Shown here: piece by piece, positions 99-20,352 of the stretch | Position numbering within the stretch: the stretch's first letter is position 1 | How the letters are laid out: the number at the start of each line of letters is the position of its first letter | Assembly: GCA_016840855.1 (NCBI GenBank) | Contig: JAEORO010000167.1 | Coordinates: 1-20,352 of the forward strand | Source of the DNA: Candidatus Thorarchaeota archaeon | GTDB taxonomy: Archaea; Asgardarchaeota; Thorarchaeia; Thorarchaeales; Thorarchaeaceae | Reading direction: 5' to 3' | Length of the DNA: 20,352 nt | The notes under the pieces: generated by a model | What the model was told of the DNA's origin: nothing | Seen by the model: only the letters and a program-made list of their open reading frames with translations | Database searches by the model: none | Translations under genes and position numbers: made by a program

Positions 99-235
99 TT
101 CGAAATACGCTCATTCAATTTCTAATGAAATTCAATTGGCTTGAATAATCTCTACTTGTCTTAAAAATCGAATGAAGACTCGCAACATTTGTTTATGTGG
201 ACTTATGTAAACAGTTTGGAGTGCAGGTGTCACTG

Positions 236-1966
236 GTGACAAGTGATAATCACGAAACCTCATGGCTACTCAAGGTAATGGAAGTAGTTCGTGATGGATT
301 TGTGGTTATCCAGGACGAAGACATCATCCTCACAAATACCGCCTTTGTAGATATGCTGGGCGTTGAGAAGGATGATCTTTTGGACACTCCTTTTGATGAT
401 ATAATCGACCCAGTATCTCGAAGACGTGATCAAGATATGATTGAGGCTCTTGTGACTGGTGAAAATGCAACACAATTTACTACTCGTCTGGCATCGAAAG
501 ATGGCAACATCCTCCATGTTGAAATTTCTCCAACAGAAATTAAGTTGAATGGAGAACCTGCAATTATTGCTGTCGTTCGGAATATCACTTCACAGATGGA
601 ACTTGAAGCTGCTGTGACAGAGCTTGAAAACCGTTTTGCGACGCTTTACGACATGTCGCCAGTAGCCTATTTCACCTTGAATCGGAATGGTATCATCGAA
701 CAGGTAAATGCTGCAGCTGAGGAATTACTTGGTTCTGATGCTGAAAATCTCATTGGAAAATCGCTATCAGAATTCCTCCCCGACCCAGAACCTCGTTATG
801 ATCCCGGTGCTGATATCGTAAAGGAAGCTCTACGAGGAAAAAGTGTCAGTGGTCTTGAAATCCAAATGAAACGGGGCGACAATAAGGTAATCTGGGCAAA
901 TATCTCTTCTAGCCCTCTAACATCAAGTGGTGAGAAATTAAGTGAAATTGGTCTCACTGCTTTTGATGTGACATCTCGTCGTGGTGTCGAACAAAGACTC
1001 AGGCAAGAGAGTGAAAGAGCAAACTTGTACATGGAAGTCATGAGCAGTGACTTGAACATGACAAATCAGAATGTTCTTTTTGCACTAGAAGATCTGAGCA
1101 TCTCACTAGACCTCCCAGATCGTCTTCGGGGATTGCTCAGCGAAACTGCTTGGAGTGTTCGTAGTGCAGGACGGATGATTGCCAATATGGGCGTGTTGAT
1201 TTCTTTGGGGCAAGCTCCGCCAGACAAAGTACAAACAAGACTTCAGCCGCACTTCAAAAAAGCTGTTAGGGAAGCCACTCGTGATTTTGAATGGAAAACT
1301 ATTAACATAAACTCAAATATCGCTGAACAATCATTTGATGTAGTAGGGCATGCTTTCATTTGGTACATATTCTTCAACATAATTCATTACTGTGCTAGTG
1401 AAGATTTGAGTACAACTGTCGAACTTGAGATAAATGCGAATATGACTGAAGATGAAGACCATGTCCGCATAGAATTTCTGGACCATGGTCCTGGGATTCC
1501 AGATGAACAGAAAGATCAGATTTTCAGGCGATCTGGTGGACCTGAGGAGCAGTTGGCAGGAAAAGGACTTGGACTAACAGTCGTTGATAGGTATATTGAC
1601 CATCTCGGTGGTAGGGTATGGGTCGAGGATAGAGATAGTTCCAATCCTTCTTTGGGAAGCAAGTTCATTGTGCTTTTGCCAGCGTGGAAGGAAGAACTCA
1701 AGATACCTCCTATTATGTTCTATAAGTCAGACCACTGTGTATTCTGTGGTCCTGTTCTTGAATCATTAAACGCTGTTCTTAAAGAAATGAACATTAGCCC
1801 ATCGAACATTCAACTGATCAATGTTGATGACCCCAATTCAGAAGTGAGTGAGGAAGAGTTGCCTGCCTTGCCTACAATCTACATGGGAGCAAAGCAACTT
1901 GCAGGCTTCGTATCAGAAGATGACTTGAGAGTAGAAATCTCCACGATGCTATTAATGTCTGGCTAA
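236..1966 (+). CDS. Soluble PAS-PAS histidine-kinase-like protein (probable pseudokinase) with a C-terminal thioredoxin-like CxxC domain
   Basis: The ORF is open from GTG 197; GTG 236 follows an AGGTG SD-like motif and gives an N-terminus closer in length to the paralog's. It has two PAS/PAC repeats, a degenerate H-box (EVMSSDL), a degenerate N-box (FNIIHYC), G1 DHGPGI and G2 GKGLGL. The C-terminal ~85 aa read FYKSDHCVFC...INVD...ALPTI...GF, a thioredoxin fold pattern with a cis-Pro motif. No TM segments are apparent. Confidence 0.88.
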   Translation: MTSDNHETSWLLKVMEVVRDGFVVIQDEDIILTNTAFVDMLGVEKDDLLDTPFDDIIDPVSRRRDQDMIEALVTGENATQFTTRLASKDGNILHVEISPTEIKLNGEPAIIAVVRNITSQMELEAAVTELENRFATLYDMSPVAYFTLNRNGIIEQVNAAAEELLGSDAENLIGKSLSEFLPDPEPRYDPGADIVKEALRGKSVSGLEIQMKRGDNKVIWANISSSPLTSSGEKLSEIGLTAFDVTSRRGVEQRLRQESERANLYMEVMSSDLNMTNQNVLFALEDLSISLDLPDRLRGLLSETAWSVRSAGRMIANMGVLISLGQAPPDKVQTRLQPHFKKAVREATRDFEWKTININSNIAEQSFDVVGHAFIWYIFFNIIHYCASEDLSTTVELEINANMTEDEDHVRIEFLDHGPGIPDEQKDQIFRRSGGPEEQLAGKGLGLTVVDRYIDHLGGRVWVEDRDSSNPSLGSKFIVLLPAWKEELKIPPIMFYKSDHCVFCGPVLESLNAVLKEMNISPSNIQLINVDDPNSEVSEEELPALPTIYMGAKQLAGFVSEDDLRVEISTMLLMSG

Positions 1967-2200
1967 TGCGAGCTACTTTTCGAAGGCATTAGTGCGAGTA
2001 TGCTGTCTATTACATTGATGAATTCATAGGTGGTTTACCTGGTACACTTCTAGCACTACTAGGTTTAATTGATTTCATCGTGATGACTTATCTCCCCTCA
2101 GGTCACTGACTCCTTTTAAGACATCGAGGTACACTTAGATTTACATGCAGTCAAATCAATTTGTGAAATGAGTCTACTTGAATTAGCAGAGGTGAGTTAT

Positions 2201-2638
2201 TTGGAGTTTGTAATTCAACAAATTGGTCATGTTAAGAAGGATGAGTCAGGTATCTATCTTGTTATTGATTTGAAATACTGGGATGCTACGATACATGTTG
2301 ACTTATTCTCACACCTAATCGTTCTCTGGTGGATACATGAACGTGACACAATCGAGGATCGAAGTACGTTGATATCGTTTCCTCCCCGAAACAAGGGCAA
2401 TGAACCGTCAGGAGTTTTTTCAAGCCGCTCCCCATCGAGACCAAACCCAATTGGACATACCATTGTTAGACTCTTAGAAGTAGATAATAGAAACAAACTT
2501 TTGAAAATTGACCATATGGATGCCCATGATGGCTCTCCTATTATTGATATCAAACCATACTTGCCATCTTCTGATAAAGTTGATAATGCTGGAGTTGCAC
2601 CATGGTTTAAAGACCTAGAACGACGATATACTATCTAG
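2201..2638 (+). CDS. trmO: TrmO/YaeB (TsaA, UPF0066)-like SAM-binding protein; putative tRNA t6A37 N6-methyltransferase, single-domain form
   Basis: Motifs GVFSSRSPSRPNPIG and DAHDGSPIIDIKPY. TTG 2201 follows the SD GAGGTGA (2189-2195); the ORF track starts at ATG 2168. Confidence 0.88.
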   Translation: MEFVIQQIGHVKKDESGIYLVIDLKYWDATIHVDLFSHLIVLWWIHERDTIEDRSTLISFPPRNKGNEPSGVFSSRSPSRPNPIGHTIVRLLEVDNRNKLLKIDHMDAHDGSPIIDIKPYLPSSDKVDNAGVAPWFKDLERRYTI

Positions 2639-2639
2639 C

Positions 2640-3563
2640 TCATTTTGGGACTCCAAGATAGGCTTGGAGAAGGTCTTCCATAAACTCTGAGGTCTTCTTG
2701 ATTATCATCATAGGGTCATCGACAATATAGGTAAAACGATAAGTGATAGCTGCAACTGGTTTAGCCCAAATTTGATATGTTGGGAGAGCAAGAAACACAT
2801 TTTCATAATCTTTACACACTTTATCGAAATGACGCTGCATTGCGCGTTGGTCATAACTCATGTGGATATTCATATCAAATGTGTATTTGTATGCGTTAGC
2901 ATCACCAGCCATGAACCGAAGTTTACCAATAGCTTTGTCAATGGAACGGATGTAGGATTTCTTTTGCTTCTCCTCCTTTACTTCCTCTATCTCTTCTTCC
3001 TTATCCTTTAGTAAATCAGCTACAGCAACTCGAAAATTAGTGACCTCACTACTCACGACTTTACTATTTGGGAGTAACTGCCTTGTTTCATCACCAAGAA
3101 GAATTCTTGTGTAATTCAGAGTAATTTCTCTGACTATTCCCTCAACATTTCCTACTCTTACATAATCACCAACTCTGAATGGTCTCGCTGCAAGAACATA
3201 TAACCCACTTACTATGTTACCGAGTGCCTGCGAGAATGCAAGACCAAGTGCAGTACCAAAGATAGCTGTGATTGATAGCAGTGTGGCAACACTTGCTTCA
3301 AATGCACCCACTATAATCATCACTCCTGCCATGAAAAAGATTAACCTTAGAACCAGTACAATTCCTGTAGCTGCTTCAACTCCCATTCCAATTGAGATAA
3401 GGGATCTTTTTACAATGCGGGTGATTGCAACATATGCTATCAAAAGTATAACAAGGTAAATGCCAAGCATTATGAGTGGAAGCAATAGATTGATGTAATA
3501 GAATAGGTAGCCAAGTGGGTCTGTAAAGAAATCAGGTGGGGGTAAAACCGTAGTAGTTTGCAT
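2640..3563 (-). CDS. mscS: Small-conductance mechanosensitive channel family protein
   Basis: About three N-terminal TM helices followed by the MscS signature GLAFSQALGNIVSGLYVLAARPFRVGDYVRVGNVEGIVREITLNYTRI...LPNSKV. Confidence 0.9.
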   Translation of the reverse strand: MQTTTVLPPPDFFTDPLGYLFYYINLLLPLIMLGIYLVILLIAYVAITRIVKRSLISIGMGVEAATGIVLVLRLIFFMAGVMIIVGAFEASVATLLSITAIFGTALGLAFSQALGNIVSGLYVLAARPFRVGDYVRVGNVEGIVREITLNYTRILLGDETRQLLPNSKVVSSEVTNFRVAVADLLKDKEEEIEEVKEEKQKKSYIRSIDKAIGKLRFMAGDANAYKYTFDMNIHMSYDQRAMQRHFDKVCKDYENVFLALPTYQIWAKPVAAITYRFTYIVDDPMMIIKKTSEFMEDLLQAYLGVPK

Positions 3564-3657
3564 AATATTCTCAACCTGTAAAATGCATTCACTATATGAA
3601 TAATGTCCTGTGTCAGTATTCTAAAAGCTGAATTTTCCATATCATTATTAGGAGTAT

Positions 3658-4782
3658 TTGATAGATAATGATGTGCCGATGACAGAGTTTGCTCTTCAGA
3701 TAAAACGCAATGTAACTTTCATTATCAAGATACTTGTAGTGCTGTCTTTCCCTCTAGTAGCTCTTGTTGGCATACCATACTTTGGGTGGATTTCTGTCCT
3801 GCTTGTTGTTGGAGATGTTTCAGTTTTTCAATTTACTTCATTCGTATCGGTCTTTGTAGGTTTAATTATTATGTTTCCATGCATAGTATTTGAATTATAT
3901 CTAAAATCTAGACCAATTACAAGATCAGTACGTTTTCTAGCGATAATTGCTTCTGTTACGTGCTGGGTTCTCAGTGTTTCTTTTCCATTCAGTATTATAA
4001 TCCCCCGAGATGTTTATATTCCGTACTATATCCCTTCATACTATACTATTAATTATGGACCAGTCCTAGCCATTACATTCTTTGTCGTACTACCATTAAT
4101 CACTCGAGAATCAATCCTGCATAGCATACCAAATGAATTACGCTCTAAGAACTATTCTTTAATCAAGTCATTAGCTGGTAAAAAGATACGACGTGAGAAG
4201 GTTCTATCTGGACTTCTTTGGTTTGGTCTCATGTTCTGTCCCTTCTTGATGATTCCAATTTATCCGAACCAATTCCAGTACATGTCTATCTTTTACATAT
4301 ATTCTCCATATTCTCTTTATAGCATTATTGAGGTATTAACTCCCTATTTTTCTATGGAACTAACCGCTATGATTGCAGTAGGACTACCAATCGTTCTTCT
4401 TTTGTCTGCAATACGTTTTGTGTTTATAAGAGATGTACTTCGGTTCAAAATTACTAGAATTGCGAAATCTAGATTGGTGTCAGTAGCAATATTGGGTGAA
4501 ATTCTACCTGCTGCTGTCATAACATTAATTGGTCTAATTTTTTTCCAACAAGGTTACTGGCCGTTAGTTTTTCCATCACCAATTCTCCCAATCCTTGGTT
4601 TTGCTTATATAAGATTAAATAGAGCAATACCCATCAAAGATGAGATTTGGGATGATCAAGAAAATAGAATGTGGTTTGAAAAAGAACGAGAACCATTCAT
4701 TACGCAACCCGGAGATGAATCAATTAAGGTACCAATAGCATATCTCTTGGTTTCGCAAGTTCGTAGGCTTCTCAAGCAGTAA
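3658..4782 (+). CDS. Hypothetical polytopic membrane protein (about 8 TM segments)
   Basis: 374-aa ORF with AGGAG before TTG 3658, many hydrophobic segments and a short soluble C-tail. No family motif was recognised. Confidence 0.7.
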   Translation: MIDNDVPMTEFALQIKRNVTFIIKILVVLSFPLVALVGIPYFGWISVLLVVGDVSVFQFTSFVSVFVGLIIMFPCIVFELYLKSRPITRSVRFLAIIASVTCWVLSVSFPFSIIIPRDVYIPYYIPSYYTINYGPVLAITFFVVLPLITRESILHSIPNELRSKNYSLIKSLAGKKIRREKVLSGLLWFGLMFCPFLMIPIYPNQFQYMSIFYIYSPYSLYSIIEVLTPYFSMELTAMIAVGLPIVLLLSAIRFVFIRDVLRFKITRIAKSRLVSVAILGEILPAAVITLIGLIFFQQGYWPLVFPSPILPILGFAYIRLNRAIPIKDEIWDDQENRMWFEKEREPFITQPGDESIKVPIAYLLVSQVRRLLKQ

Positions 4783-4789
4783 TGAAGAA

Positions 4790-6229
4790 TTATGTGGAAT
4801 CGAAAACTAGTGTCTTTATTACTACCGGAACCACAACATCTTCTATAATTGGTTCACCAATATCAATAAAATCCCCTTCTTTCAACTTAATTTCATCTAT
4901 GGAAAGCAATTCATTCTGAATTCCTGTTTCTCGTTTTATGACATTGCCAACACTGTTGCCAATATCTGCATCAAAACACATGAAGATAGGCGTCTTGTTT
5001 TTGACGGTGTTAGGTAGTGCACCAATGACGCCTATTGCGAACTCTTTGAGGATTTCATACGACGGTTTGACAGAATTATTAAAGGCTAGAATTAGAGGAT
5101 CAACGCCTTCAGCTAAATCAAATCTTGAAAGAGCTCGTTCAATTGCTATCTTCACATCTACCGAGGATGGCTGCCTGCTGAGAATGAATGGCTCAACAAC
5201 TGGTAAGTTACGTAGAGGATATTCAAGACCCGTTGAAAGGAAAGTCGTCGACCCGCTAACCTGAAGACTGAAATTACCTGCTCCTATGACTGTGGCTCGA
5301 ATTCCATGCTCTGGTTTTCCTATTGGGATTTCCAGTTCAGAACTCTTCTCTTTTATCGCCATAGCCAATGAAACGCCAAGATCATTAAACACCCGCTCCT
5401 CGTTTCCATAGATGTATTCAGCAACACCTCCAGAGAATGAAATGCTGTCAATTGATCCCTCATAATGAAGCGGAGGTGCCATCATGAGCATACTTGCTAT
5501 GCTGGAAAGAGGTTTCTGTTGCATGCATTGAATTAAGGCTTCAGCAAGAGCATCTGCTAAAATATTCTGACATGATTCTGAGAGGACTTGCCCTAATTTT
5601 AGACTTAACCCCAACTCTTTTGCTATGTTTTTACCTGTGTCTTCTAGGCGAGTGATTTGTCTATTATCATCAAGAGCTATTAACCTCCCGCCCACATTAA
5701 TAGCAGTCGTAGCAACAACTCGCCCCTCCCTACAAATAGCAATATTTGATGAACCGCCACCGATATCAACATTCATTATTGTTATACCTAAATCAGCTGA
5801 CTTGGTGACAGCTCCCGAACCATATGCTGCAAGAACAGATTCGAAATTTGGTCCTGCAGTTGCAGCTACAAACTTACCCGCTTCCCCTGCGAGGGCACTA
5901 ACAATCCATTCCGCATTCTCCTTCTTGGCTGTTTCACCAGTGATGATAACAGCACCTGTATCTATCTGTGAAATGGAAAAGCCTGCGTTCCTATAATCTA
6001 TTAATAGCAAGTCTCTGAGCTGCTCAAAGTCGATGTTTCTTGAGTCCTTGAATGGTGTCAGATGAATAGGTCCTGAATGTAGGATACTTCGCTCCTTGAT
6101 TTCGAACTTCTCAGCACGAGAGTTCTCATCTCTTTCAAGTACTATTTTGCTGAACACGATATGGGAAGTGGAAGAACCAATATCGACACCTACACTAGTG
6201 AGTTCCTTTCGTTTTGTGAGAATAACCAT
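4790..6229 (-). CDS. eutA: EutA-family ethanolamine ammonia-lyase reactivating factor (ASKHA/actin-like ATPase)
   Basis: Motifs SVGVDIGSSTSHIVFS, TGAVIITGETAKKENA, FVAATAGPNFESVLAAYGSGA, NVDIGGGSSN, SFSGGVAEYIY, IRATVIGAG and the C-terminal GDFIDIG...VPVVIKTLVF. ATG 6229 follows GGTGA; the ORF is open to GTG 6241. Confidence 0.92.
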   Translation of the reverse strand: MVILTKRKELTSVGVDIGSSTSHIVFSKIVLERDENSRAEKFEIKERSILHSGPIHLTPFKDSRNIDFEQLRDLLLIDYRNAGFSISQIDTGAVIITGETAKKENAEWIVSALAGEAGKFVAATAGPNFESVLAAYGSGAVTKSADLGITIMNVDIGGGSSNIAICREGRVVATTAINVGGRLIALDDNRQITRLEDTGKNIAKELGLSLKLGQVLSESCQNILADALAEALIQCMQQKPLSSIASMLMMAPPLHYEGSIDSISFSGGVAEYIYGNEERVFNDLGVSLAMAIKEKSSELEIPIGKPEHGIRATVIGAGNFSLQVSGSTTFLSTGLEYPLRNLPVVEPFILSRQPSSVDVKIAIERALSRFDLAEGVDPLILAFNNSVKPSYEILKEFAIGVIGALPNTVKNKTPIFMCFDADIGNSVGNVIKRETGIQNELLSIDEIKLKEGDFIDIGEPIIEDVVVPVVIKTLVFDST

Positions 6230-6344
6230 ATTGAATTTCACCGTTCAGCAATAACGAGCGCCAAGTATTTCGTCCTTTTAGATTTATGATAGCGCGCAAT
6301 ATTTTAGCGGGTTCGTTAATTGACAGAGCAGGAGACTAACAAAG

Positions 6345-6857
6345 ATGGAAACACTTAAGGCGATTAGAAACCGACGAAGTATTAGAAAATACAAATCTAA
6401 TGATGTCAGCGAACAAGACCTTTTCACAATATTAGAAGCTGGTCGTTGGGCTCCTTCTGCTTCTAACAAACAGCCTTGGCACTTTATCATCATTCGAGAT
6501 AAAGAGATGAGAAAGAAACTTTCTGATATTCATGACTATGGTCGGTTCATGAAAGAGTCACCAGTAGTATTTGTTGTTCTTGGGGATCCGTCAAAGCATC
6601 CGAGATTTCACCTTGCAGATCCTCATCAAGCAGTACAGAATATGTTACTTGCAGCCTACTCTCTAGGGTTGGCAACTTGTTGGATGGGAGTAAGAGACAC
6701 TAATCTTGAACCACAATTCCGGGAGGTTTTGGGTGTACCTGAAAACCTTCGAGTCATCTGTTCAATATCTCTTGGGTATGGTGATCAAGAACGTAGTAGC
6801 ACTCGTTTTCCTTTAGAAGACATAACATCATGGGAAAAATATGGTGCGAAGAAATAA
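6345..6857 (+). CDS. Nitroreductase family flavoprotein
   Basis: RRSIRKY, AGRWAPSASNKQPW and QNMLLAAYSLGLATCWMG; SD AGGAG upstream. Confidence 0.93.
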   Translation: METLKAIRNRRSIRKYKSNDVSEQDLFTILEAGRWAPSASNKQPWHFIIIRDKEMRKKLSDIHDYGRFMKESPVVFVVLGDPSKHPRFHLADPHQAVQNMLLAAYSLGLATCWMGVRDTNLEPQFREVLGVPENLRVICSISLGYGDQERSSTRFPLEDITSWEKYGAKK

Positions 6858-6874
6858 TCGTGTGGTTTTCCAAA

Positions 6875-7276
6875 ATGGTTGGAGAAACTGACCTGAAGAA
6901 ACTCCTACGAAATATGGAGCCAGTGGTTGTTCAAGGAGAATATGTTTTTTGCTCTATCGAAGAGGGTCAATTGGATTATCTTGAAAAACCGTTACTTGTA
7001 TTTAGAGAGAATGAAGGACCAACAGTCATTGTTACTAAACAAGCTGCTGTTCAACATGGGTTTTCATTTGATACTATTTGGGGTCTCATTTCCCTCTCTA
7101 TTCATTCAAATCTACAATCTATAGGTTTCTTAGCAGCAATTACCACACAGCTCGCAAAGGCTGGCATAAGTGTCAATGCAGTTTCGGCATTTTACCATGA
7201 TCATCTTTTCGTTCCACATGAACGAATCGATGATGCGCTTTCACTGCTCATAGATCTTTCAAAATCACATCTATAA
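6875..7276 (+). CDS. Small tandem-ACT-domain protein (DUF2241/ACT_3 plus ACT_7-like)
   Basis: N-terminus MVGETDLKKLLRNMEP, FRENEGPTVIV, and HSNLQSIGFLAAITTQLAKAGISVNAVSAFYHDHLFVP. ATG 6875 is preferred over 6830, which overlaps the nitroreductase. Confidence 0.85.
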   Translation: MVGETDLKKLLRNMEPVVVQGEYVFCSIEEGQLDYLEKPLLVFRENEGPTVIVTKQAAVQHGFSFDTIWGLISLSIHSNLQSIGFLAAITTQLAKAGISVNAVSAFYHDHLFVPHERIDDALSLLIDLSKSHL

Positions 7277-7762
7277 TGAAATTATGACTTCCTTTGATTT
7301 CTTACCAGTCATATACTCTATGTCAATCCTACCAATATTGACACGCTTCACAGATTTCTCAGTAATTTGCTCTTTAACCACTTTCTCGGGGTCTGACTCT
7401 AGTGCATGAATCATGATGCCAAGAGCTCGTTTTTTCTCATCTGAATCTTTGATAAATGTAACACGACCTCTAAATTGCACAGTGGCATAAAGATGATCAC
7501 ACGAGCCATCTACATAACCCAAATCATCAAGTGCTTGCCCCCAGATGATATTGTTCTTCTTGAGTATGTCAATCTTCTTGCCTTCTTGAGCGCAGTGGAA
7601 ATAGATACAATAATTCTCAGGATCGTAACCATGACTCAACGTTGCTAGATATGGCTCATCATTAAGACTCATTGCGATCGTGATGTGCTTTGTTTTCCTT
7701 ATGATAGCAATGACTTCATCTTTACTTTCTATGGCCTTCTCTTTCCTACGTATTCCTCTCAA
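7271..7762 (-). CDS. Pyridoxamine 5'-phosphate oxidase-like flavin-binding protein (NimA/NimC-like, COG3467)
   Basis: IRRKEKAI N-terminus, EPYLATLSHGY, IYFHCAQEGKKIDIL, YATVQFRG and the terminal MTGKKS, all typical of this split-barrel family. Confidence 0.85.
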   Translation of the reverse strand: MRGIRRKEKAIESKDEVIAIIRKTKHITIAMSLNDEPYLATLSHGYDPENYCIYFHCAQEGKKIDILKKNNIIWGQALDDLGYVDGSCDHLYATVQFRGRVTFIKDSDEKKRALGIMIHALESDPEKVVKEQITEKSVKRVNIGRIDIEYMTGKKSKEVIISL

Positions 7763-7844
7763 TTTGCATCATCCCTCTCTGCAATCAAAGCTACGTTAAA
7801 GATTTCGAGTAACGTTTTTGTGTCACAACAATCAAACACTATCC

Positions 7845-8792
7845 ATGATAGGGCTTCAAGACATCTATGACGCTCATCATAGAATTAGAGACTATGCGCT
7901 TTGGACACCAGTTATGACTTCATCGACAATAGATAAGTTGACTGATTCTCAAGTCTTCTTTAAGTGTGAGAACTTTCAACGTGCTGGTGCTTTCAAATTT
8001 AGAGGAGCTCTAAATACTCTAACACAATTAACTCAAGAGGAACGTGATAGAGGCGTCATTGCCCATTCATCTGGAAATCATGCTCAAGCTGTTGCTCTTG
8101 CAGCTTCTCTTTCAGGTATGAAGGCAACAATAGTGATGCCCAAGAATTCACCAAAAGTAAAGGTTGATGCGACACGAGGATACGGTGCTGAAATAGTGTT
8201 TTGTGAAAACTCAATTGAGAGCAGAGTTCAAGTTGCAAACCAATTAATCGAGAAACACGACTATGTGCTAATTCATCCTTACAATGATGAACGGATTATT
8301 GCAGGAGCTGGAACAGCTGCTTTGGAGCTCATTGAAGAAGTTAAAGAATTAGACTATATCTTTGCTCCCGTAGGTGGTGGGGGTCTTTTAAGCGGAACAT
8401 CAATTACTACAAAGGGACTTTGTACTGGAGCTAAAGTGATTGGTGTTGAGCCAAAGAATGCTGATGATGCATATCGATCTTTCAGAGATGGGAGAATCTA
8501 CCCAAGCATCAACCCAAATACAATAGCTGATGGTCTCAGGACTCAACTTGGGGAAATAACCTTTCGAATAATCAGAAAAAATGTTGATTCCATCATTACT
8601 GTTTCAGAAAAAGAGATTGTAAATGCAATGCGACTACTCTGGGAACGAATGAAAATTCTAGTTGAACCATCTGGAGCAGTTTCACTTGCTGGGACTATCA
8701 AGATGAATGATAGCTTTTCTGGAAAGAGGGTTGGTGTTATCATCAGCGGAGGTAATATCGATCTCTCGGAGTTCTTCTCAAAATACTCATGA
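7845..8792 (+). CDS. PLP-dependent fold-type II enzyme: serine racemase / serine-threonine dehydratase / threo-3-hydroxyaspartate ammonia-lyase-like, without a C-terminal ACT domain
   Basis: FKCENFQRAGAFKFRGA (PLP Lys), HSSGNHAQA, PVGGGGL, EPKNADD, TIADG, VEPSGA and ISGGNID. ATG 7845 is used; the ORF is open from 7818. Confidence 0.88.
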   Translation: MIGLQDIYDAHHRIRDYALWTPVMTSSTIDKLTDSQVFFKCENFQRAGAFKFRGALNTLTQLTQEERDRGVIAHSSGNHAQAVALAASLSGMKATIVMPKNSPKVKVDATRGYGAEIVFCENSIESRVQVANQLIEKHDYVLIHPYNDERIIAGAGTAALELIEEVKELDYIFAPVGGGGLLSGTSITTKGLCTGAKVIGVEPKNADDAYRSFRDGRIYPSINPNTIADGLRTQLGEITFRIIRKNVDSIITVSEKEIVNAMRLLWERMKILVEPSGAVSLAGTIKMNDSFSGKRVGVIISGGNIDLSEFFSKYS

Positions 8793-11072
8793 AGAATTGT
8801 TACGTTCTTGAGCACTTGGTAGCCAAACTACGAACTCTGCTCCTTTGGTAGGCTCTCCTTTTACACGGTCTCTTACATCAATGCGACCCCTGTATTTGTC
8901 ACAGATTTGTTTTGATTGGTGAAGCCCAACTCCTCCATAACGACGTGACAAATCAAAGATGGCAGCTTTAAGCGAACCTGAAATTCCTTGTCCATTGTCA
9001 CTTACTGCAATTTCATATCCCTCTCCGCTGTCCTTGAGTGAGATCCAGACAATTCTTTCCTCTCTGGGATTGTGCTCTATTGCATTTTCAATAAGATTTC
9101 CAAGAAGTTGTTCGAGGAATTGGTCAGCTTCTACAAGCGCATTATCTACCTTTAGTGATAAATCAAAAGCAACATCTCTATGTTGATTTTTATATGATTC
9201 AGCAACAGACTCTATTGTTGTACTCAGTTTTCTTATCCTCAATGGGACTGACATTAAGGGTTCTGTCACTTTTACTTTTGATATCATACTTTGACATCTT
9301 TCAACTGAGGAAACAATTTGTCCTAGCAATCGACGCGCTTCAGGGTCTTGAAGATTCATCTCCATTACCATAGTGCTTCCTAAAATAATCTGAAGTTGAT
9401 TTCGAAAGTCATGAGCCATTAAATCAATAAGATGCATCGCCCGTTCCTTTTGGGTTTCAATATGTTTCTCTGCGTCAAGACGATCAGTCACATTCATAGT
9501 AACGATTTGGAGTGCTGGAGCTTCTTCATACTCGACACGTCTGCCAAAAATTTCTAACCATTGCATGTCTCCATCTTTTTGGAAGACACGAATGAGCATT
9601 GGTATCCTCTGAGGTGGTTCTCCTTTCATTAATTCCTCTAATCGCTTCATGGCGGGATCCCAATCATCGGGATGTATCATGCTTTGAATTTCCTTTGGAG
9701 ATAATGCGAGTACTTCATCAACTGTTCTTTCGAGAAAACCAGCAAAAGCCGGGTTTGCGAACTTGATTTGCAGAGGGAGGGTTTGAATAATCATGAAACC
9801 CTGAAATGATTGGTCTATTAACGCACGATATTTTGCTTCTGATTTTATCAGAGCTTTTTGGCTTTCTTTCCTCTCTTCTATATTCCTAGCTACTCCAAGT
9901 ATGCCTGTCGGAACTCCATCAGAATCTCTTGTAAAGGTTCTTGCAACTTCAACCCATACCATAGAACCATCTTTTCTTTTGAGATGTATCTCTAATGGTG
10001 GTGAATCGCCGCGGATTAATGAACCAGCTGCATCCTTTTCTTCATCAAGAGCGAGCTTAACTGCCTCAATAGCTGTCCAGACTGACTCTGGAGCCATTAA
10101 CTCAATCAATGATTTTCCAGTAACTTCTTCAACAGAAAAACCCAGAAGCAATTCTACTGAAGGACTAACATAAGTGAGGTTTAATTCCATATCGGAAGTA
10201 AAAATAATATCAATAATGTTGTCAGCGAGAAGTTTGTATCGTTTCTCAGTATCTTCTAGAGCAGCTTCTTTCCGTTTCTCCTCTGTAATCTCAAGGAGCT
10301 GGCTCAAATATCCCTTAAGTTCTCCTCCATTTTCTAATCCTAATGGCGTCACCCACGTGTCTAATATTATTTTACCCGATCGAGAAGTTGGATAGAGTTC
10401 TTTCTCTTTCACTTTTTCGAAGTCAAACGTGGTTTCATACTTCACAGCTTCTCCTCTGATTAATTCAGCCTTGAACTCGTTTGGTACGTTTGGATCGTCA
10501 AAAAGACTGAATCCTATGAGATCATTAAGATCCGAAATTCCCCCTATATCCAATGCTGCTTGATTTGCGGCAATAAGAATTCCATTTGGATCAAACAACT
10601 CAATCCCTAATTGAGACTCCTCGAAAATTCTTCGCATCATCTCTACATTTTCTTCTAGAGCTTTTCGAGAAGCTTTCAGTTCAGTGATATCAGTAATCAC
10701 AGCAAAAGACCCTCGATGACCTCCTTCACGATTTAGCAGAGGAGCTCCTGATACTATTGTAGGTACCTGCTCACCTGTACTTCGACTCCATGCAACCTCA
10801 TATTGGGTGGCTTCACCTTTAGTTCGTCTTCTGATATTTTCACGAATGATTTTCTTGTTTTTTTCGTCAACAAAATCAAGGAGATGCCTGCCAACCATGT
10901 CGTCTACAGAATAATTGAGCATATTTGCAAAACGTGAATTAACGTAAGTGAAAACACCGTCTATATCAATAATTCCAAATCCATCGTTCATCGAGTCCAC
11001 TAGTGCTCTGAAAAGTGTAGCTTCCTCTTCTTGCGAGATTAAGTGATTTGATATAGGTTCTGGGTCTTTCAT
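8787..11072 (-). CDS. Cytoplasmic multi-PAS (four PAS/PAC) sensor histidine kinase
   Basis: Four PAS repeats ending in DITE, EITE, NIEE and NVTD, an intact H-box LMAHDFRNQL, N-box NLIENAIEH, G1 DNGQGI and G2 GGVGL. No TM helices. Confidence 0.93.
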   Translation of the reverse strand: MKDPEPISNHLISQEEEATLFRALVDSMNDGFGIIDIDGVFTYVNSRFANMLNYSVDDMVGRHLLDFVDEKNKKIIRENIRRRTKGEATQYEVAWSRSTGEQVPTIVSGAPLLNREGGHRGSFAVITDITELKASRKALEENVEMMRRIFEESQLGIELFDPNGILIAANQAALDIGGISDLNDLIGFSLFDDPNVPNEFKAELIRGEAVKYETTFDFEKVKEKELYPTSRSGKIILDTWVTPLGLENGGELKGYLSQLLEITEEKRKEAALEDTEKRYKLLADNIIDIIFTSDMELNLTYVSPSVELLLGFSVEEVTGKSLIELMAPESVWTAIEAVKLALDEEKDAAGSLIRGDSPPLEIHLKRKDGSMVWVEVARTFTRDSDGVPTGILGVARNIEERKESQKALIKSEAKYRALIDQSFQGFMIIQTLPLQIKFANPAFAGFLERTVDEVLALSPKEIQSMIHPDDWDPAMKRLEELMKGEPPQRIPMLIRVFQKDGDMQWLEIFGRRVEYEEAPALQIVTMNVTDRLDAEKHIETQKERAMHLIDLMAHDFRNQLQIILGSTMVMEMNLQDPEARRLLGQIVSSVERCQSMISKVKVTEPLMSVPLRIRKLSTTIESVAESYKNQHRDVAFDLSLKVDNALVEADQFLEQLLGNLIENAIEHNPREERIVWISLKDSGEGYEIAVSDNGQGISGSLKAAIFDLSRRYGGVGLHQSKQICDKYRGRIDVRDRVKGEPTKGAEFVVWLPSAQERNNSS

Positions 11073-11246
11073 TTACAATTCTAGTATTGTCTAATGAGTA
11101 CATATAGAACTCTCTAGGATGTACACGCTTTTCTATCTGAGGAAATTATATTCGGATATCTCTCTAAGACTCTGTGATTCAATTAAGAAGACATCATCTT
11201 ATGGAAACTTCTAATGATAATTGATCTACATCTTACAGGGTCCCAA

Positions 11247-12347
11247 ATGTCACGCTGGATTATGCATGTCGATATGGATGCATTTTTTGCTTCAGTAGAG
11301 CAGTATAGAAATCATCCGGAACTTGTTGGACGTCCAGTATGTGTTGGCCACGATCCTAAGGGAGGAAAAGGTCGAGGAGTTGTTCGCGCTGCTTCTTACG
11401 AAGCTCGTGAAAAGGGCATTCATGCGGGCATGCCTGTTTCTAAAGCGTATCGACTTTGTCCTGAGGCTGCTTTTGTTGAAGGTGAGTTCGAGAGTTATGG
11501 TGTTGCATCCGATGAATTCATGGATATCTTACATGAGTATGCTGATGGCGGACGTGTGCGGCGAGCAAGTATTGATGAAGCCTACATAGAAGCGACAAAC
11601 AGTGTAGACACCTTTGGTGGACCATATAATACAGCTTTGTCTATTCAAAACTCAATTTGGCGCGAAGTTCTGTTGCCTTGTTCCATCGGTGTTGCTCCGA
11701 ATATGTCTGTTGCTAAAATTGCTACAGGAATCAAGAAACCCAAAGGCATCACGATCGTTGGACCTGATCCTGTAGATGTTTTGAAGTTTCTAGAACCTCT
11801 TCCTGTGTCTGCAATCAACGGAATTGGATACAAAACAGCTGCTCGTTTAGAAAAGTTCGGAATTACTACATTAGGACAAATTCAAATGATGACAATACCG
11901 GAGTTATGGCCTTCAATGGGTCGTGGGTCTGTCTGGTTATATCAACGAGCTAGAGGTATAGATGAACGACCTTTGGTTGATAATGGACCAAGAGTTAGAA
12001 AATCAATATCAAAGGACCGCACTTTTATGGAGGATGTAGAACCTGACGCAACTGAGTATATTCATGAAGTCTTGTCTACGATGTGTGGAAGAATTGGTGA
12101 AAGACTCCAGAAAAAATCTCTCCGATTTAAAACAGTCACAGTCAAAATGCGATACAGTGATTTTTCGACGATACAGCGAAGTAAAAGCATTCCAGTTGAA
12201 ACAGATAATGCAAATATTCTCTCTCGTCTGGCAATGGAGATATTTGACCACCAACGAGATCGAGAAAAGTCCATACGTCTAGTTGGTGTCAAGGTTTCTG
12301 GCTTGAGTGAATCTTCAGAACAACTTTGTCTAACTGAGTTCATCTGA
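11247..12347 (+). CDS. dinB: Y-family DNA polymerase IV (DinB/Dpo4-like)
   Basis: HVDMDAFFASVE, AASYEAR..G...GMP, SIDEAY, the HhH motif GIGYKTA, little-finger KSISKDRTF and IRLVGV, and a C-terminal PIP-like QLCLTEFI. ATG 11247 is preferred; the ORF is open from 11214. Confidence 0.95.
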   Translation: MSRWIMHVDMDAFFASVEQYRNHPELVGRPVCVGHDPKGGKGRGVVRAASYEAREKGIHAGMPVSKAYRLCPEAAFVEGEFESYGVASDEFMDILHEYADGGRVRRASIDEAYIEATNSVDTFGGPYNTALSIQNSIWREVLLPCSIGVAPNMSVAKIATGIKKPKGITIVGPDPVDVLKFLEPLPVSAINGIGYKTAARLEKFGITTLGQIQMMTIPELWPSMGRGSVWLYQRARGIDERPLVDNGPRVRKSISKDRTFMEDVEPDATEYIHEVLSTMCGRIGERLQKKSLRFKTVTVKMRYSDFSTIQRSKSIPVETDNANILSRLAMEIFDHQRDREKSIRLVGVKVSGLSESSEQLCLTEFI

Positions 12348-12350
12348 AAA

Positions 12351-12974
12351 TCATCCTAATTCACTTAGGTGACCATCATCAATTTCAGTAACTGCTGCTT
12401 TTACTCTATTTTTTAGTTTCACCAAAAGTCTACTGATTCCGTTAACATAATCTGGATTATTCTCTTCTTCCAAAAGAGTGGCATATCCCATTATATTGTG
12501 TGCAATACCTGTGATATCATGAGAGAGTTTATGGATGAACTTGCTTGCAACATCCTGTTGTATCATAGATTGCTTGAATCGTGACTTTCTATTTACCAAA
12601 TGCAATATGATCTCCCTGATGGCAGAGAACTGATTTCGATAATCTTGACTTTTTAGTATATAATAGTCTGCACCTAGATTCAGTGATTTAATGGCAATAT
12701 CCTCACTCGAGTGTCCCGTCCATATCGCAAATGCTGTATTATTTCCAGCTGCTCGAATTGCTTCTAGCATTTCCAATCCCGAAGAATCAGGCATCAAGTA
12801 ATCTGAGATTATGACATTGAATTCTTCTTTCTCCAATTTTGCCAAAGCGTCTTTAACAGATGTTGATACAACAATTTCCAAATCCGGGTCCTTCTGCTCA
12901 AGAAGGATCCTTGTTATATCAAGAAGTTCTACATCGTCATCTACAAGTAGAACGCGAATTACCAACCAAATCAC
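12351..12974 (-). CDS. Response regulator: receiver domain plus a C-terminal HisKA-like helical hairpin with no HATPase domain
   Basis: REC motifs VLLVDDD, IISDYLMP (phospho-Asp), WTG and ILK. The C-terminal part reads FIHKLSHDITGIAHNIMGYATLL. The true start may be TTG 12965, after GGGAG. Confidence 0.87.
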   Translation of the reverse strand: MIWLVIRVLLVDDDVELLDITRILLEQKDPDLEIVVSTSVKDALAKLEKEEFNVIISDYLMPDSSGLEMLEAIRAAGNNTAFAIWTGHSSEDIAIKSLNLGADYYILKSQDYRNQFSAIREIILHLVNRKSRFKQSMIQQDVASKFIHKLSHDITGIAHNIMGYATLLEEENNPDYVNGISRLLVKLKNRVKAAVTEIDDGHLSELG

Positions 12975-18627: not shown

Positions 18628-18640
18628 AGAATGCACCTTT

Positions 18641-18658: not shown

Positions 18659-18664
18659 TAATCA

Positions 18665-18791: not shown

Positions 18792-20352
18792 TTGCAGGAT
18801 CAGCACAACAAGAAAGCCAATCTAGAAGACGAATACTTCGGAATGGTGATGTTAGCAAATGATGGTATTGTCATTTTACAGGATGATAGAATCGTTATGG
18901 CTAATCCCGCATTTCTTGAGATGATGGGATATGATTTTGCGAATCTTGAAGGCAAACCAATTACTGATTTACTAGAGCCAACAACAGCTGGTCAGTTCTC
19001 TGATGTTCACAAGAGGTTGAACTGGGGTCAGAGTGGGCAACCTCCTTTTAGAGCACGTTTTCTAAAGAGTGATGGAAGTCTAGTGCATGTTGAAATGAGC
19101 ACGTCTGATTTTGCCCTCTCTCGAAAACCTGCTATAATGGGTATTGTAAGAGATATTACTCATCAAGTCGAACTTGAATCAGCTATTGATGCATCTGAAA
19201 GTAGGTATCGAACGCTATATACTTCATCACCAATCGCATATTTTTCGCTAAGCTTGATGGGCAATATCTTGCAGGTGAATCAAGCAGCAACTCGATTATT
19301 GGGATATAAAGAGGAGGACCTCATTCGAAGAAATTTCTCATCATTTCTTCCAAATGGAGTGGGAAAAGAGATAGTTGGCCAAATGCTTTCTGAAGTAGCT
19401 AATGGAAAGAGTGTTGAAGATTTTGAGATTCAACTGAAAACAGCAGATGGTCGGTCAACTTGGGTTAGTGTGACAGCAAACTTACTTGAATATCCCGACC
19501 AATCATCAACAATTGCTCTGCTCGCTCTCGATATTGACAGACGCAAGAATGCAGAAGCTAGAGAACAAGTGGAACGAGACCGAGCGAATCTGTATCTAGA
19601 AGTCATGACACATGATCTCAATAATGTGAATCAGAGTCTTCTTTTTTCAACCGGACTTCTTGAGAACTCTAGCGATATTCCTGAACAATACCGTCCATTA
19701 TTGCATGAATCTAGCTGGAATGTCCGACGAGCAGCCAGAATGATTGCGAATTTGAGGTTTCTATTTCGTCTAGCAAATGATCCTCCAACGAGGACAAAAG
19801 TCGATATCTACAACTACTTTCAATCCTCCCTTGCATCAGTTCAAGCAGACTTCCCATGGAAAAGGTTGGAATTGACGACCAATATCGAGAAAGGTAAATT
19901 CGAAGTAGCAGGGCACCAATATCTTGAACAAGTGTGCTTTAACATCCTACACAACACAATGACTTTTGACGAGAAGGATGTCGTTGTTGTTGAAGTAAAT
20001 GCTGAAATTGTTGATGAGGTTAAGATGGTTCGTATCGAGTTCTCTGACCACGGACCTGGTATTCCTGATACTGCAAAAGAATTCATTTTTAGAAGAACAG
20101 GCAGTCCGGATGACCAAATTGTTGGTCGAGGTCTTGGTCTTACACTTGTCGATAGGATTGTAAGGAATATCGGTGGCAAGATCCGGGTGGAGGACCGTGT
20201 AAAGGGCGATCACTCACAAGGTGCGCGCTTTGTTCTTATGCTTCCCCTATGGGCTGAAACGCCCGAACTCCATTGTGGTCGAAATACTTGCATAACTTTC
20301 TATAAATCAAATCACTGTGTGTTTTGTGAGCCTGCAATGGAAATCATGACCG
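18792..20352 (+). CDS. Partial gene (3' end truncated by the window): PAS-PAS histidine kinase with a C-terminal thioredoxin-like CxxC domain; paralog of 236..1966
   Basis: Missing from the ORF track because there is no stop in the window. Manual translation from TTG 18792 (in-frame TAG at 18777; alternative ATG 18843) is open to the end: MQDQHNKK...DGIVILQDD...VRDITHQ...ANLYLEVMTHDLNNVNQ (His at 19611-13)...FNILHNT...DHGPGIPD...GRGLGL...LPLWAETPELHCGRNTCITFYKSNHCVFCEPAMEIMT. Confidence 0.9.
   Translation, partial: MQDQHNKKANLEDEYFGMVMLANDGIVILQDDRIVMANPAFLEMMGYDFANLEGKPITDLLEPTTAGQFSDVHKRLNWGQSGQPPFRARFLKSDGSLVHVEMSTSDFALSRKPAIMGIVRDITHQVELESAIDASESRYRTLYTSSPIAYFSLSLMGNILQVNQAATRLLGYKEEDLIRRNFSSFLPNGVGKEIVGQMLSEVANGKSVEDFEIQLKTADGRSTWVSVTANLLEYPDQSSTIALLALDIDRRKNAEAREQVERDRANLYLEVMTHDLNNVNQSLLFSTGLLENSSDIPEQYRPLLHESSWNVRRAARMIANLRFLFRLANDPPTRTKVDIYNYFQSSLASVQADFPWKRLELTTNIEKGKFEVAGHQYLEQVCFNILHNTMTFDEKDVVVVEVNAEIVDEVKMVRIEFSDHGPGIPDTAKEFIFRRTGSPDDQIVGRGLGLTLVDRIVRNIGGKIRVEDRVKGDHSQGARFVLMLPLWAETPELHCGRNTCITFYKSNHCVFCEPAMEIMT

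Follow-up and report, generated by a model that had tools for sequence, protein, structure and literature searches.

Pseudo-histidine kinases are known from few bacterial cases, namely DivL and PsmA. A thioredoxin fold is found in the cyanobacterial SasA, which is an active histidine kinase with a KaiB-like thioredoxin-fold domain for protein binding. DivL, as described in PMC4211667, carries Tyr in place of the phosphoacceptor His, binds DivK~P on its response-regulator docking face, and signals in reverse. In the account given of PsmA (PMC12963549), E/D-x-x-T/N is the phosphatase motif that follows the His. We found no archaeal pseudo-histidine kinase described in a full-text literature search, and a search for a histidine kinase fused to a thioredoxin-like domain gave, as far as their available text goes, unrelated papers only. 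In the available text of an archaeal two-component census, thioredoxin is mentioned only in REC-thioredoxin reductase fusions.

We analyzed a stretch of 20,352 nucleotides from a thorarchaeotal contig (the window), which encodes a kinase-like protein, P0001, and its paralog, P0002, with the following features:

197..1966, + strand: P0001, whole open reading frame, 589 aa from GTG 197
278..601, + strand: P0001 PAS domain 1, approximately aa 28-135 (Pfam PAS_9/PAS_3)
629..982, + strand: P0001 PAS domain 2, approximately aa 145-262 (Pfam PAS_9/PAS/PAS_4, best stretches 146-262)
983..1213, + strand: P0001 DHp helical hairpin, aa 263-339 (helix 1, 263-303; helix 2, 308-339)
1019..1069, + strand: P0001 degenerate H-box ANLYMEVMSSDLNMTNQ, with Ser284 for the His and Met288 for the H+4 Asn
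1229..1687, + strand: P0001 CA (HATPase_c) domain, aa 345-497 (Pfam PF02518, E=1.2e-14)
1361..1396, + strand: P0001 degenerate N-box WYIFFNIIHYCA, with Tyr398 aligned with the second Asn of HK853 LLNLLNNG
1481..1498, + strand: P0001 G1 box DHGPGI, intact
1559..1576, + strand: P0001 G2 box GKGLGL, conserved
1709..1963, + strand: P0001 C-terminal thioredoxin-like domain, aa 505-589, about 10 residues after the CA domain
1736..1747, + strand: P0001 CxxC, reading CVFC (Cys514, Cys517), with the cis-Pro loop LPALPTI further downstream
12351-12974, - strand: protein with a REC domain and an H-box, without a CA domain
18792..20351, + strand: P0002, active-type paralog, 3' end open, cut at aa 520 by the end of the window

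Two other possible starts of P0001, GTG 236 and ATG 278, give the 576-aa and 562-aa forms seen in most database homologs. Pfam HisKA had no match in P0001, and the bounds of the DHp helices were taken from a predicted model of aa 262-589 (model helices 2-42 and 47-78). The kinase core was modeled with a pLDDT of 85.4 as a pair of long helices with an alpha/beta domain after them, and its top Foldseek matches were the class I histidine kinases HK853, WalK, and CpxA (best E ~1e-12). The CA domain also matched HK853 in a PDB profile search (E=3.4e-14). An F-box (IFRR) is present along with the G1 and G2 boxes. The ATP lid, just before G2 (model residues 186-194), has a pLDDT of <50 and has lost its conservation.

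For the final 96 residues of P0001, neither Pfam nor NCBIfam returned a family at E<=0.01, so we took the thioredoxin assignment from PDB profile and fold searches. The profile search gave weak thioredoxin matches (6mos, E=1.3e-3; 1fo5, E=5.3e-3). The predicted model of this domain (pLDDT 83.6) has the elements E13-17, H24-37, E45-49, E67-70, E73-76, and H81-95, with CVFC preceding helix 24-37 and LPALPTI aligned with the a-V-P-T-i loop of 1fo5. Foldseek gave 34 PDB matches at E<=1e-3, and those listed were thioredoxins, glutaredoxin-like proteins, or thioredoxin-fusion constructs. The first-pass annotation had called this part of the protein "Trx," a label that the fold supports but the family models do not; the domain is thus thioredoxin-like by predicted fold, not by family model. 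Four more conserved Cys residues were observed in the active paralog clade and in the early-branching His-less lineages (SNN, QSN, and KYN).

In the H-box of P0001, the position of the phosphoacceptor His is occupied by Ser284 (AGT, 1046-1048), and in its N-box, FNIIHY, the position of the Asn that coordinates Mg-ATP is occupied by Tyr398 (TAC, 1388-1390). The corresponding residues of P0002 are His274 in the H-box ANLYLEVMTHDLNNVNQ (CAT, 19611-19613) and Asn388 in the N-box FNILHN (AAC, 19953-19955). These codons and residues had all been reported before, as had the intactness of G1, G2, the reading frame, and the CxxC, and we recovered every one of them from the sequence. P0001 had accordingly been described as doubly inactivated. 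Both of those losses stand, but the count was too low: the H+4 position, an Asn in the HDLNN of P0002, is Met288 in P0001 (1058-1060), whose phosphatase motif reads S-D-L-N-M, with the H+1 Asp kept and Met at H+4. Judged from the residues, the inactivation is at least triple (the His, the H+4 Asn, and the N-box Asn), and aa 263-345 (DHp) contain no His at all. P0002, which keeps its H+4 Asn, carries CGRNTC and CVFC.

The two proteins share 40% identity over 511 columns (BLASTP), and because residues 257-316 align without a gap, the register of the H-box is unambiguous. When the 57 best library representatives were aligned with the two window proteins, the His column contained His in 50 of the 52 covering rows and the N-box Asn column contained Asn in 55/58, so that both substitutions of P0001 fall in columns that are otherwise near-invariant.

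The losses extend well beyond the window. The His was found in 0/120 protein homologs of P0001 (52-93% identity), and the closer ones, 104 of the 120, also lack the N-box Asn. Among the 121 His-less proteins (P0001 and the 120 homologs), the position is held by Ser (97), Asn (13), Thr (6), or Gln (5). At the genome level, the His was absent at 54 of 55 readable loci (Ser 43, Gln 7, Asn 2, Arg 1, and Lys 1), with Ser codons of both families (AGC 22, AGT 19, TCT 2, and TCG 1); two N-terminal fragments (L035 and L038) were excluded from the motif counts, and bacterial PAS-only matches (L060-L066) were not used. Within P0001's own sub-clade, the N-box position is Y, F, or H in 105/105 sequences and the H+4 position is Met in 98 and Leu in 7, and the adenine-binding Asp429, the F-box, and G2 remain conserved. 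The paralog-type proteins keep the His, the N-box Asn, and the G1 glycines in 121/121 cases and the H+4 Asn in 120/121. The question had been raised whether the Ser and Tyr substitutions mark a conserved clade, a view that close orthologs retaining His and Asn would have contradicted; the counts bear out such a clade, as close and distant orthologs alike are devoid of the His. In the protein homologs and genome loci searched, the family was found solely in Asgard archaea, mainly Thorarchaeota, and it is single-copy in each species genome where it was found (59 loci, including three pairs that are halves of one gene).

A 69-row tree placed an Asn-less clade (16 rows, support 100*) within a His-less clade (28 rows, support 100*), and a 45-row tree nested them likewise, running from KYN/SNN through SLN/SIN/RES to SMY/NMF/QLH. 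Since the Asn-less clade is nested in the His-less clade, the loss was stepwise. A single origin of the His loss was not rejected (p-AU 0.451, with trees from quick searches), and the His may have been lost once or twice in the family. The N-box Asn is kept in 16/16 deeper His-less proteins. The G1 glycines are retained throughout the active group (121/121) and the His-less, Asn-keeping group (16/16) and drop to 59/101 and 72/103 in the Asn-less group, in which the ATP-lid residues T446, P449, Q452, and V454 have also lost conservation; G1 and the lid were relaxed only after the loss of the N-box Asn. None of the three groups (105, 16, and 121 sequences) shows any variation in the CxxC or the cis-Pro. 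In PAS domain 1, N32, P48, W87, R95, and S111 are variable in the P0001 clade and near-invariant in the active paralog clade.

Synonymous saturation was common, with dS >2 or undefined in 84/91 close-group pairs, and omega was 0.042-0.153 in the 32 pairs of 1176 that had usable dS (0.05<dS<1.5). For the window gene and L001, dN was 0.030 and dS was 0.634. Every domain had an omega of <0.27, and the thioredoxin-like domain had 0.017-0.19. These values lie far below the dN/dS of 1 that had been set as a benchmark and agree with the earlier proposal that this copy is maintained rather than decaying, as do the intact open reading frames and the His-less orthologs. When the pseudo copy was compared with the active paralog at the protein level in 14 contig-matched genomes, a pairing inferred from identical lengths of the longest contigs, the ratio of evolutionary rates was 1.04 overall, 0.73 for the DHp, and 1.14 for the CA domain. 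The DHp of the pseudo copy is thus more conserved than that of the active paralog, evolving faster in just 6/91 pairs, which are phylogenetically non-independent. Six DHp residues, L268, S272, A296, E298, D299, and G332, are fixed where the active clade has E, R, S, G, L, and R, respectively.

Taken together, the best explanation is probably that P0001 is a selected pseudo-histidine kinase acting as a non-phosphorylating transducer, and signaling without kinase chemistry appears most likely from its sequence. The His-less orthologs, the nested clades, and the low dN/dS all favor the non-catalytic reading offered by the first-pass annotation. The gene would have arisen as an old duplicate of a PAS-PAS-DHp-CA-thioredoxin-like kinase that shed its phospho-chemistry in steps: the phosphoacceptor His may have gone first, followed by the H+4 Asn of the phosphatase motif and, in the window's sub-clade, by the N-box Mg-ATP Asn, with subsequent drift of the G1 glycines and the ATP lid. 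Strong purifying selection has kept the two PAS sensors, the unusually conserved DHp hairpin, the CA fold, and the CxxC and cis-Pro site. Retention of G1, G2, the F-box, and Asp429 may mean that P0001 still binds nucleotide to some extent or that these motifs serve a structural purpose. We envisage P0001 as a dimeric transducer in which PAS input, the redox state of the CxxC, or both would shift the DHp/CA conformation, and whose output would be partner binding through the conserved face of DHp helix 1, i.e., the face on which real kinases, and likewise DivL, dock response regulators. Such binding could modulate either the pathway in which the co-resident active paralog acts or that paralog's regulator, with no His phosphorylated by P0001.

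The neighborhoods of the gene vary between sub-clades, and no response regulator was adjacent to it at the 57 loci examined. In the window's sub-clade, a downstream block is conserved that comprises TrmO, MscS, a membrane protein, EutA-like, nitroreductase, ACT, PNPOx-like, a PALP enzyme, a 761-aa PAS kinase, and DinB. It has the look of simple conserved gene order, not of an operon that includes the pseudokinase.

The alternative that survives best is a thiol-based output, in which the dead core would be a PAS-controlled dimeric scaffold that gates thiol-disulfide exchange between the CxxC and a target protein, implying a switch of signaling from phosphoryl to redox chemistry. The CxxC is the only chemically competent site left, it starts helix 1 of a thioredoxin-like fold, and its invariance together with that of the cis-Pro and the low omega of the C-terminal domain would fit this role. 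Moreover, in one His-less sub-clade (L039, L042, L043, L045, and L047), the gene adjoins an HdrC/HdrB/HdrA-like/MvhD-like cluster. However, this cluster is not present in the neighborhoods of the window's own sub-clade, no linked target was found, and no thioredoxin reductase was adjacent to the gene in the neighborhoods examined. The added constraint falls on the DHp, not on the C-terminal domain. The CxxC is not peculiar to the dead copy, as it is also found in the active paralog, and it could serve for sensing instead of output. We therefore regard a thiol-based output as possible but improbable. Similarly doubtful is the idea that an ancient duplicate gave up phosphoryl chemistry and became a PAS- and redox-gated pseudo-kinase with the CxxC as its sole live active site. 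If true, it would be a natural example of a two-component sensor turned thiol-based or purely allosteric, working beside a still-active twin and probably on that twin's pathway, and those deeper His-less lineages in which the ATP site is intact would represent surviving intermediate stages of the conversion.

On the other hand, the dead copy might pair with the active paralog through the DHp, giving a half-dead dimer or inhibition in trans. The shared architecture, the 40% identity, and the stronger constraint on the dead copy's DHp are compatible with such pairing, as is the location of both genes on one contig, which is seen in the window and, by inference from matched contigs, in 13 further assemblies, one of them also backed by locus tags of the same series (DRP09_05780 and DRP09_05675). 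However, the six clade-specific fixed DHp differences include E298/D299 versus G/L close to the hairpin, where helix 1 ends. Divergence in the dimer-specificity region of kinase paralogs usually insulates them, and this end of helix 1 is reportedly, from the 2011 work of Ashenberg et al. on kinase paralogs, the region that sets dimer specificity. A complex prediction for the DHp of P0001 (alignment columns 1-86) with that of P0002 (residues 250-335), run without controls, scored 0.19 against a mark of 0.32, a value that weighs neither for nor against a heterodimer. A heterodimer is, in our estimation, less probable still than a thiol-based output.

P0001 might also be an enzyme by another route, phosphorylating another residue or a separate DHp-only protein, or being phosphorylated at Ser284. 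The conserved D429, F-box, and G2 and the intact G1 of P0001 would allow for this; the deeper His-less sub-clades, with the N-box Asn and G1 in 16/16, might still bind ATP, and the window encodes the REC and H-box protein without a CA domain at 12351-12974. However, the Mg-binding Asn is replaced in 105/105 sequences of the sub-clade, G1 and the lid are relaxed, and the DHp of P0001 is free of His. Position 284 is S, N, T, or Q in the sub-clade and Q, R, K, or Y in deeper lineages, a spread that makes Ser phosphorylation unlikely, as the first-pass annotation had supposed in ranking it the lesser alternative. We consider any such enzyme very improbable. A strain lesion, an assembly error, or a decaying pseudogene, to which only the disrupted frame at one locus of 57 (L027) lends itself, is refuted as the same substitutions occur in independent assemblies of many sources with intact open reading frames and an omega of 0.04-0.15, and its likelihood is negligible.

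The family, single-copy and with an active twin alongside, offers a clean natural series of successive inactivation stages for studying the route from kinase to pseudo-enzyme and the roles left to the remaining domains. Several database entries label these proteins "sensor histidine kinase," which overstates their chemistry. Asgard two-component counts built on HATPase_c matches will take in these proteins.

Compared with class I HisKA-type kinases such as HK853 and WalK, P0001 has the same DHp hairpin and CA fold but has neither the phosphoacceptor His nor the H+4 Asn/Thr nor the Mg-binding Asn. Its thioredoxin-like domain is C-terminal and has a CxxC, whereas the thioredoxin-fold domain of SasA is N-terminal without a CxxC. 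This domain resembles Methanocaldococcus-type small archaeal thioredoxins, as represented by M. jannaschii MJ0307 (PDB 1fo5), in being an ~85-aa beta-alpha-beta-beta-beta-alpha domain in which the CxxC precedes helix 1 and a cis-Pro loop is present; the profile match (E=5.3e-3) spans 79 residues, and Foldseek TM-scores to thioredoxins are ~0.5-0.7. Unlike those thioredoxins, it is attached C-terminally to a kinase core, has the motif C-V-F-C, and reaches no Pfam or NCBIfam model.

With DivL of Caulobacter crescentus, as portrayed in PMC4211667, P0001 shares a multi-PAS, DHp, and CA architecture, replacement of the phosphoacceptor His throughout the orthologs, conservation of a patch on DHp helix 1 that surrounds the former His site, and a non-catalytic function, the last being predicted for P0001. 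The DivL structure 4q20 ranked 22nd of 344 Foldseek matches to the P0001 core, but DivL was absent from the 32 PDB profile matches of P0001, and no specific sequence relationship was seen. DivL keeps N, G1, F, and G2, whereas the N-box Asn is gone from P0001's sub-clade; at the His position, DivL carries Tyr, whereas the P0001 family has small polar residues; and DivL is alphaproteobacterial, has DivK and CckA as partners, and is without a thioredoxin-like tail. We rejected orthology to DivL, as Ser, Asn, Thr, or Gln, not Tyr, occupies the His position, the match is one of fold only, and the family is Asgard. The Streptomyces histidine pseudokinase PsmA, in the description given in PMC12963549, likewise combines tandem PAS domains with a DHp and a CA domain, and it has a His position that varies among orthologs, ATP-binding motifs that are not conserved, and no D/ExxT/N phosphatase motif; on that description, the P0001 clade has the same three kinds of loss. 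However, PsmA as described is a bacterial hybrid with a long disordered linker and a REC domain, binds DivIVA, and is without a thioredoxin-like domain, and the P0001 family keeps the D at H+1 and loses H+4 only. By its sequence, P0001 is most likely a conserved Asgard-archaeal pseudo-histidine kinase, in kind closest to DivL and PsmA but of a separate family.

Two related genes of the window encode PAS-PAS-kinase proteins with a C-terminal CxxC domain:

197-1966, forward strand: P0001, a 589-aa protein, here also called the dead copy
18792-20351, forward strand: P0002, its paralog with the same domain layout, the ORF being open at the window end

In P0001, Pfam recognized two PAS domains and HATPase_c (E=1.2e-14) and returned no HisKA match, and the last 96 residues matched no family in Pfam or NCBIfam. 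Its start codon is uncertain (window 197-280): GTG 197 gives 589 aa, and the majority of homologs in databases have 576 or 562 aa, as expected from GTG 236 or ATG 278. The two proteins are 40% identical over 511 columns (BLASTP), and the H-box register is certain because this stretch aligns without gaps. The first-pass annotation had reported the loss of the H-box His and the N-box Asn from P0001, and both residues and their codons proved right when re-read in the window.

Residues and codons at the two catalytic positions
H-box His position: P0001, Ser284 (AGT, 1046-1048); P0002, His274 (CAT, 19611-19613)
N-box second Asn position: P0001, Tyr398 (TAC, 1388-1390); P0002, Asn388 (AAC, 19953-19955)

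It had missed a third change, Met288 at H+4, where the HDLNN of the paralog has Asn; according to PMC12963549, the H+4 residue belongs to the E/D-x-x-T/N phosphatase motif. All three residues are gone from P0001: the canonical phosphoacceptor, the Asn for Mg-ATP, and the residue of the phosphatase motif. It departs from a competent HisKA kinase in three defining features.

The orthologs, whose state the first-pass annotation had proposed as a test, lack the His as well. A word-indexed search gave, as its best 120, P0001 homologs of 52-93% identity, the named ones being nearly all Candidatus Thorarchaeota MAG proteins, with single Promethearchaeota and Hodarchaeota entries. None of these 120 has His at the H-box position, which in the 121 proteins including P0001 is occupied by Ser (97), Asn (13), Thr (6), or Gln (5). 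The N-box Asn is replaced by Tyr, Phe, or His in 104 of the 120 and kept by the 16 most distant. For P0002, the same search listed 120 homologs (51-92% identity); with P0002 included, His and the N-box Asn are present in 121/121 and the H+4 Asn in 120/121. A scan of species-representative genomes yielded 66 loci, L001-L059 on Asgard archaeal contigs (best match 94% identical) and L060-L066, which were bacterial, PAS-only matches and were left out. An ORF spanned the kinase core in 57 loci, L035 and L038 being N-terminal fragments only. The H-box column was readable in 55 of these, and 54 lacked His (Ser 43, Gln 7, Asn 2, Arg 1, Lys 1); the sole exception, L058, is an active-type gene. The N-box position held Tyr, Phe, His, or Ser in 28 loci and Asn in 27. 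There was one copy per MAG, three locus pairs being halves of a single gene over two contigs, and only L027 had a disrupted ORF. At this locus (2770-4149), the ORF stops in the G2 region at a length of 459 aa, and the tblastn frame holds 13 stops; an assembly error and a genuine loss are both possible.

The surmise that the dead copy is maintained rather than decaying, with dN/dS below 1 in its clade, agrees with the rates observed. Synonymous sites were saturated in most ortholog pairs: among the 14 closest orthologs, dS was <2 in only 7/91 pairs (omega 0.047-0.078 there), and among 49 full-length His-less genes, 32/1176 pairs had 0.05<dS<1.5, with omega of 0.042-0.153. The window gene and L001 gave a dN of 0.030, a dS of 0.634, and an omega of 0.047, and the per-domain omega was never above 0.27. 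Purifying selection acts strongly on all domains of the gene. Serine codons at position 284 come from both codon families (AGC 22, AGT 19, TCT 2, TCG 1), which fits selection on residue type. We also compared dead and active copies at the protein level in 14 assemblies: the window and 13 others in which the two copies were matched through equal lengths of the longest contig. In one of the 13, the locus tags DRP09_05780 and DRP09_05675, from a single series, support the match too. The mean dead/active distance ratio, from non-independent pairs and inferred pairing, was 1.04 overall and 1.05 for PAS1, 1.07 for PAS2, 0.73 for DHp, 1.14 for CA, and 1.03 for the C-terminal domain; in DHp, the dead copy was faster in only 6/91 non-independent pairs. 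Clearly, the dead copy is not drifting, and constraint on it is highest in DHp. The two clades have different fixed residues at 23 positions, six of them in DHp (dead versus active: L268/E, S272/R, A296/S, E298/G, D299/L, and G332/R). The DHp of the dead copy has acquired both constraint and clade-specific residues. In PAS1 (window 278-601), N32, P48, W87, R95, and S111 are 95-99% conserved in the active clade and variable in the His-less clade; a lost or altered ligand of this PAS domain is conceivable. A reading of P0001 as a lesion or pseudogene is excluded.

A model of the DHp-CA-C-terminal part, built from a 50-row alignment (mean pLDDT 85.4), predicts two long helices with Ser284 as residue 23 of the first, then a CA alpha/beta domain with a low-confidence lid (residues 186-194), and a small end domain. 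Its best PDB matches by Foldseek were the class I kinases WalK, HK853, VicK-type, and CpxA (E about 1e-12), with DivL (4q20) at rank 22. The profile of the same alignment matched HK853 at E=3.4e-14 and aligned position 398 with the latter Asn of NLLNN, the residue that coordinates Mg-ATP. The C-terminal domain alone was predicted as beta-alpha-beta-beta-beta-alpha (pLDDT 83.6) and matched 34 structures in Foldseek at E<=1e-3. The matches listed, with TM-scores of about 0.5-0.7, are thioredoxins, constructs fused to thioredoxin, or glutaredoxin-like proteins. Against thioredoxins, its profile gave weak matches (6mos, E=1.3e-3; 1fo5, E=5.3e-3) in which the CxxC and cis-Pro loop line up. The earlier label "Trx" thus holds for the fold and the weak profile match, though no Pfam or NCBIfam model backs it. 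The DHp-CA-C-terminal part was searched exhaustively with HMMER against 1.84 billion cluster representatives, yielding 15,220 proteins at E<=1e-3 and just 26 at E<=1e-30. Among the best 57 representatives plus the two window proteins, 50 of the 52 rows covering the column have His, the exceptions being P0001 and one representative with Tyr (P0243), and 55/58 rows have the N-box Asn. The C-terminal CxxC occurs in only 19 of the 57, which makes proteins that fuse kinase and thioredoxin a small family within a large set of ordinary archaeal-type kinases.

The CxxC and Pro of the C-terminal domain are invariant in both clades. A first alternative to a pseudokinase that signals by partner binding is a thiol-based output of the dead copy, via the CxxC. 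In one His-less sub-clade (L039, L042, L043, L045, and L047), an Hdr-like cluster adjoins the gene on the same strand, with a 4Fe-4S protein (HdrC-like), a CCG-domain protein (HdrB-like), two HdrA-like flavoproteins, and, at some of these loci, an MvhD/FlpD-like protein; these neighbors hint at a link with thiol/disulfide metabolism. The deeper His-less sub-clades, these five loci included, have neighbors that differ from those in the window's own sub-clade. In the latter, a radical-SAM gene or an MFS transporter lies 5′ of the dead gene, and a conserved run of unrelated genes lies 3′, ending with a bona fide PAS kinase of 761 aa and DinB. No response regulator was next to the dead gene at any examined locus. 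Four extra Cys surround the thioredoxin-like domain in the active clade and in the early His-less lineages SNN, QSN, and KYN, named by their H-box, H+4, and N-box residues (window 20270-20351 and the alignments). Two are in a P-C-G-R-x-x-C motif that precedes strand 1, one in I-x-I-C following the cis-Pro strand, and one close to the C-terminus. They could form a metal site or an additional disulfide. From the SLN/SIN level upward, the His-less lineages, the window's sub-clade among them, have lost all four, and the 5-residue segment with the first Cys is deleted (ELKIP-----PIMFYKS).

The active twin co-resides with the dead copy, and direct heterodimerization of the two is a second alternative to a pseudokinase that signals by partner binding. 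The gene order between them (window 2168-12347: TrmO-like, MscS-like, membrane protein, EutA-like, nitroreductase, ACT protein, PNPOx-like, PALP enzyme, PAS kinase, and DinB) is conserved in L002, L004, L007, L008, L026, L029, and others, which makes the paralogs a stably linked pair some 17 kb apart. The PAS kinase in this run is a third kinase (8787-11072, reverse strand; 761 aa) with several PAS domains and with its H-box (MAHDFRNQLQ) and N-box (NLIENAIEHN) both intact; at least 13 related loci have it in the corresponding place. The EutA-like gene (4790-6241, reverse strand), a full-length family match in an Asgard archaeon (Pfam E=6.3e-137), is conserved in 20 of the examined loci, and no further ethanolamine-utilization genes were seen near it. 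A 207-aa protein (12351-12974, reverse strand) has a REC domain, then a stretch resembling an H-box (KLSHDITG), and last a short helical tail. It has no CA domain, Pfam matches Response_reg only, and a role in phosphotransfer is possible. An ArsR-family regulator (18304-18675, reverse strand) and a P-type ATPase gene (16410-18320, reverse strand), whose start the former overlaps by 17 bases, are divergent from the active paralog, which starts at 18792.

The first-pass annotation had asked whether the Ser and Tyr substitutions define a clade, and a 69-row tree (quick IQ-TREE, C20 mixture model) shows a clade for each of the two losses. The fusion family forms one group, with a His-less clade of 28 rows inside which a His-less and Asn-less clade of 16 rows, including P0001, is nested (support 100 for each). 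A quick 45-row tree (LG+G4) with deeper genome loci added recovered an active clade and a main His-less clade of 19 rows each (both 100). Among His-less rows, those keeping both the H+4 and N-box Asn branch first, those losing H+4 next, and those that also lost the N-box Asn last. Another two His-less rows, with Gln or Tyr in place of the His, form a small pair near the root of the family, where the tree lacks resolution. Constraining all 21 His-less rows to one clade, a group named post hoc, cost 1.65 log-likelihood units (p-AU 0.451), and a single His loss is therefore not rejected. Motif conservation is consistent with a two-step history.

Retention of G1 glycines (His-less Asn-kept, n=16; His-less Asn-lost, n=105; active clade, n=121)
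Glycine 431: Asn-kept 16/16; Asn-lost 59/101; active 121/121
Glycine 433: Asn-kept 16/16; Asn-lost 72/103; active 121/121

Conservation of ATP-lid T446, P449, Q452, and V454 is also lost in the Asn-less group, and the adenine-contacting Asp429, the F-box Phe, and G2 are conserved throughout all three groups. The ATP site of the dead copy has lost constraint. From this pattern we infer loss of Mg-ATP-dependent catalysis in the Asn-less group, where some nucleotide contact may persist; residual or alternative enzymatic activity is the third alternative.

Judged from sequence, the dead copy most likely works as a pseudo-histidine kinase. It would be a dimeric transducer acting without phosphorylation, in which PAS input and/or the CxxC redox state would set the DHp/CA conformation and the output would be partner binding at the conserved DHp face, as in DivL. 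No description of archaeal pseudo-histidine kinases or of kinase-thioredoxin fusions turned up in the openly available full-text literature, and the available part of an archaeal two-component census (PMC5847659) describes neither. The main value of the family is that stages of inactivation are preserved in series beside an active twin. DivL of Caulobacter binds DivK~P on its regulator-docking face and returns the signal through its PAS domains (PMC4211667). By loss pattern, PsmA of Streptomyces is closest, with a variable residue at the His position, unconserved ATP motifs, and no D/ExxT/N (PMC12963549). The dead family resembles both in kind and belongs to neither family.
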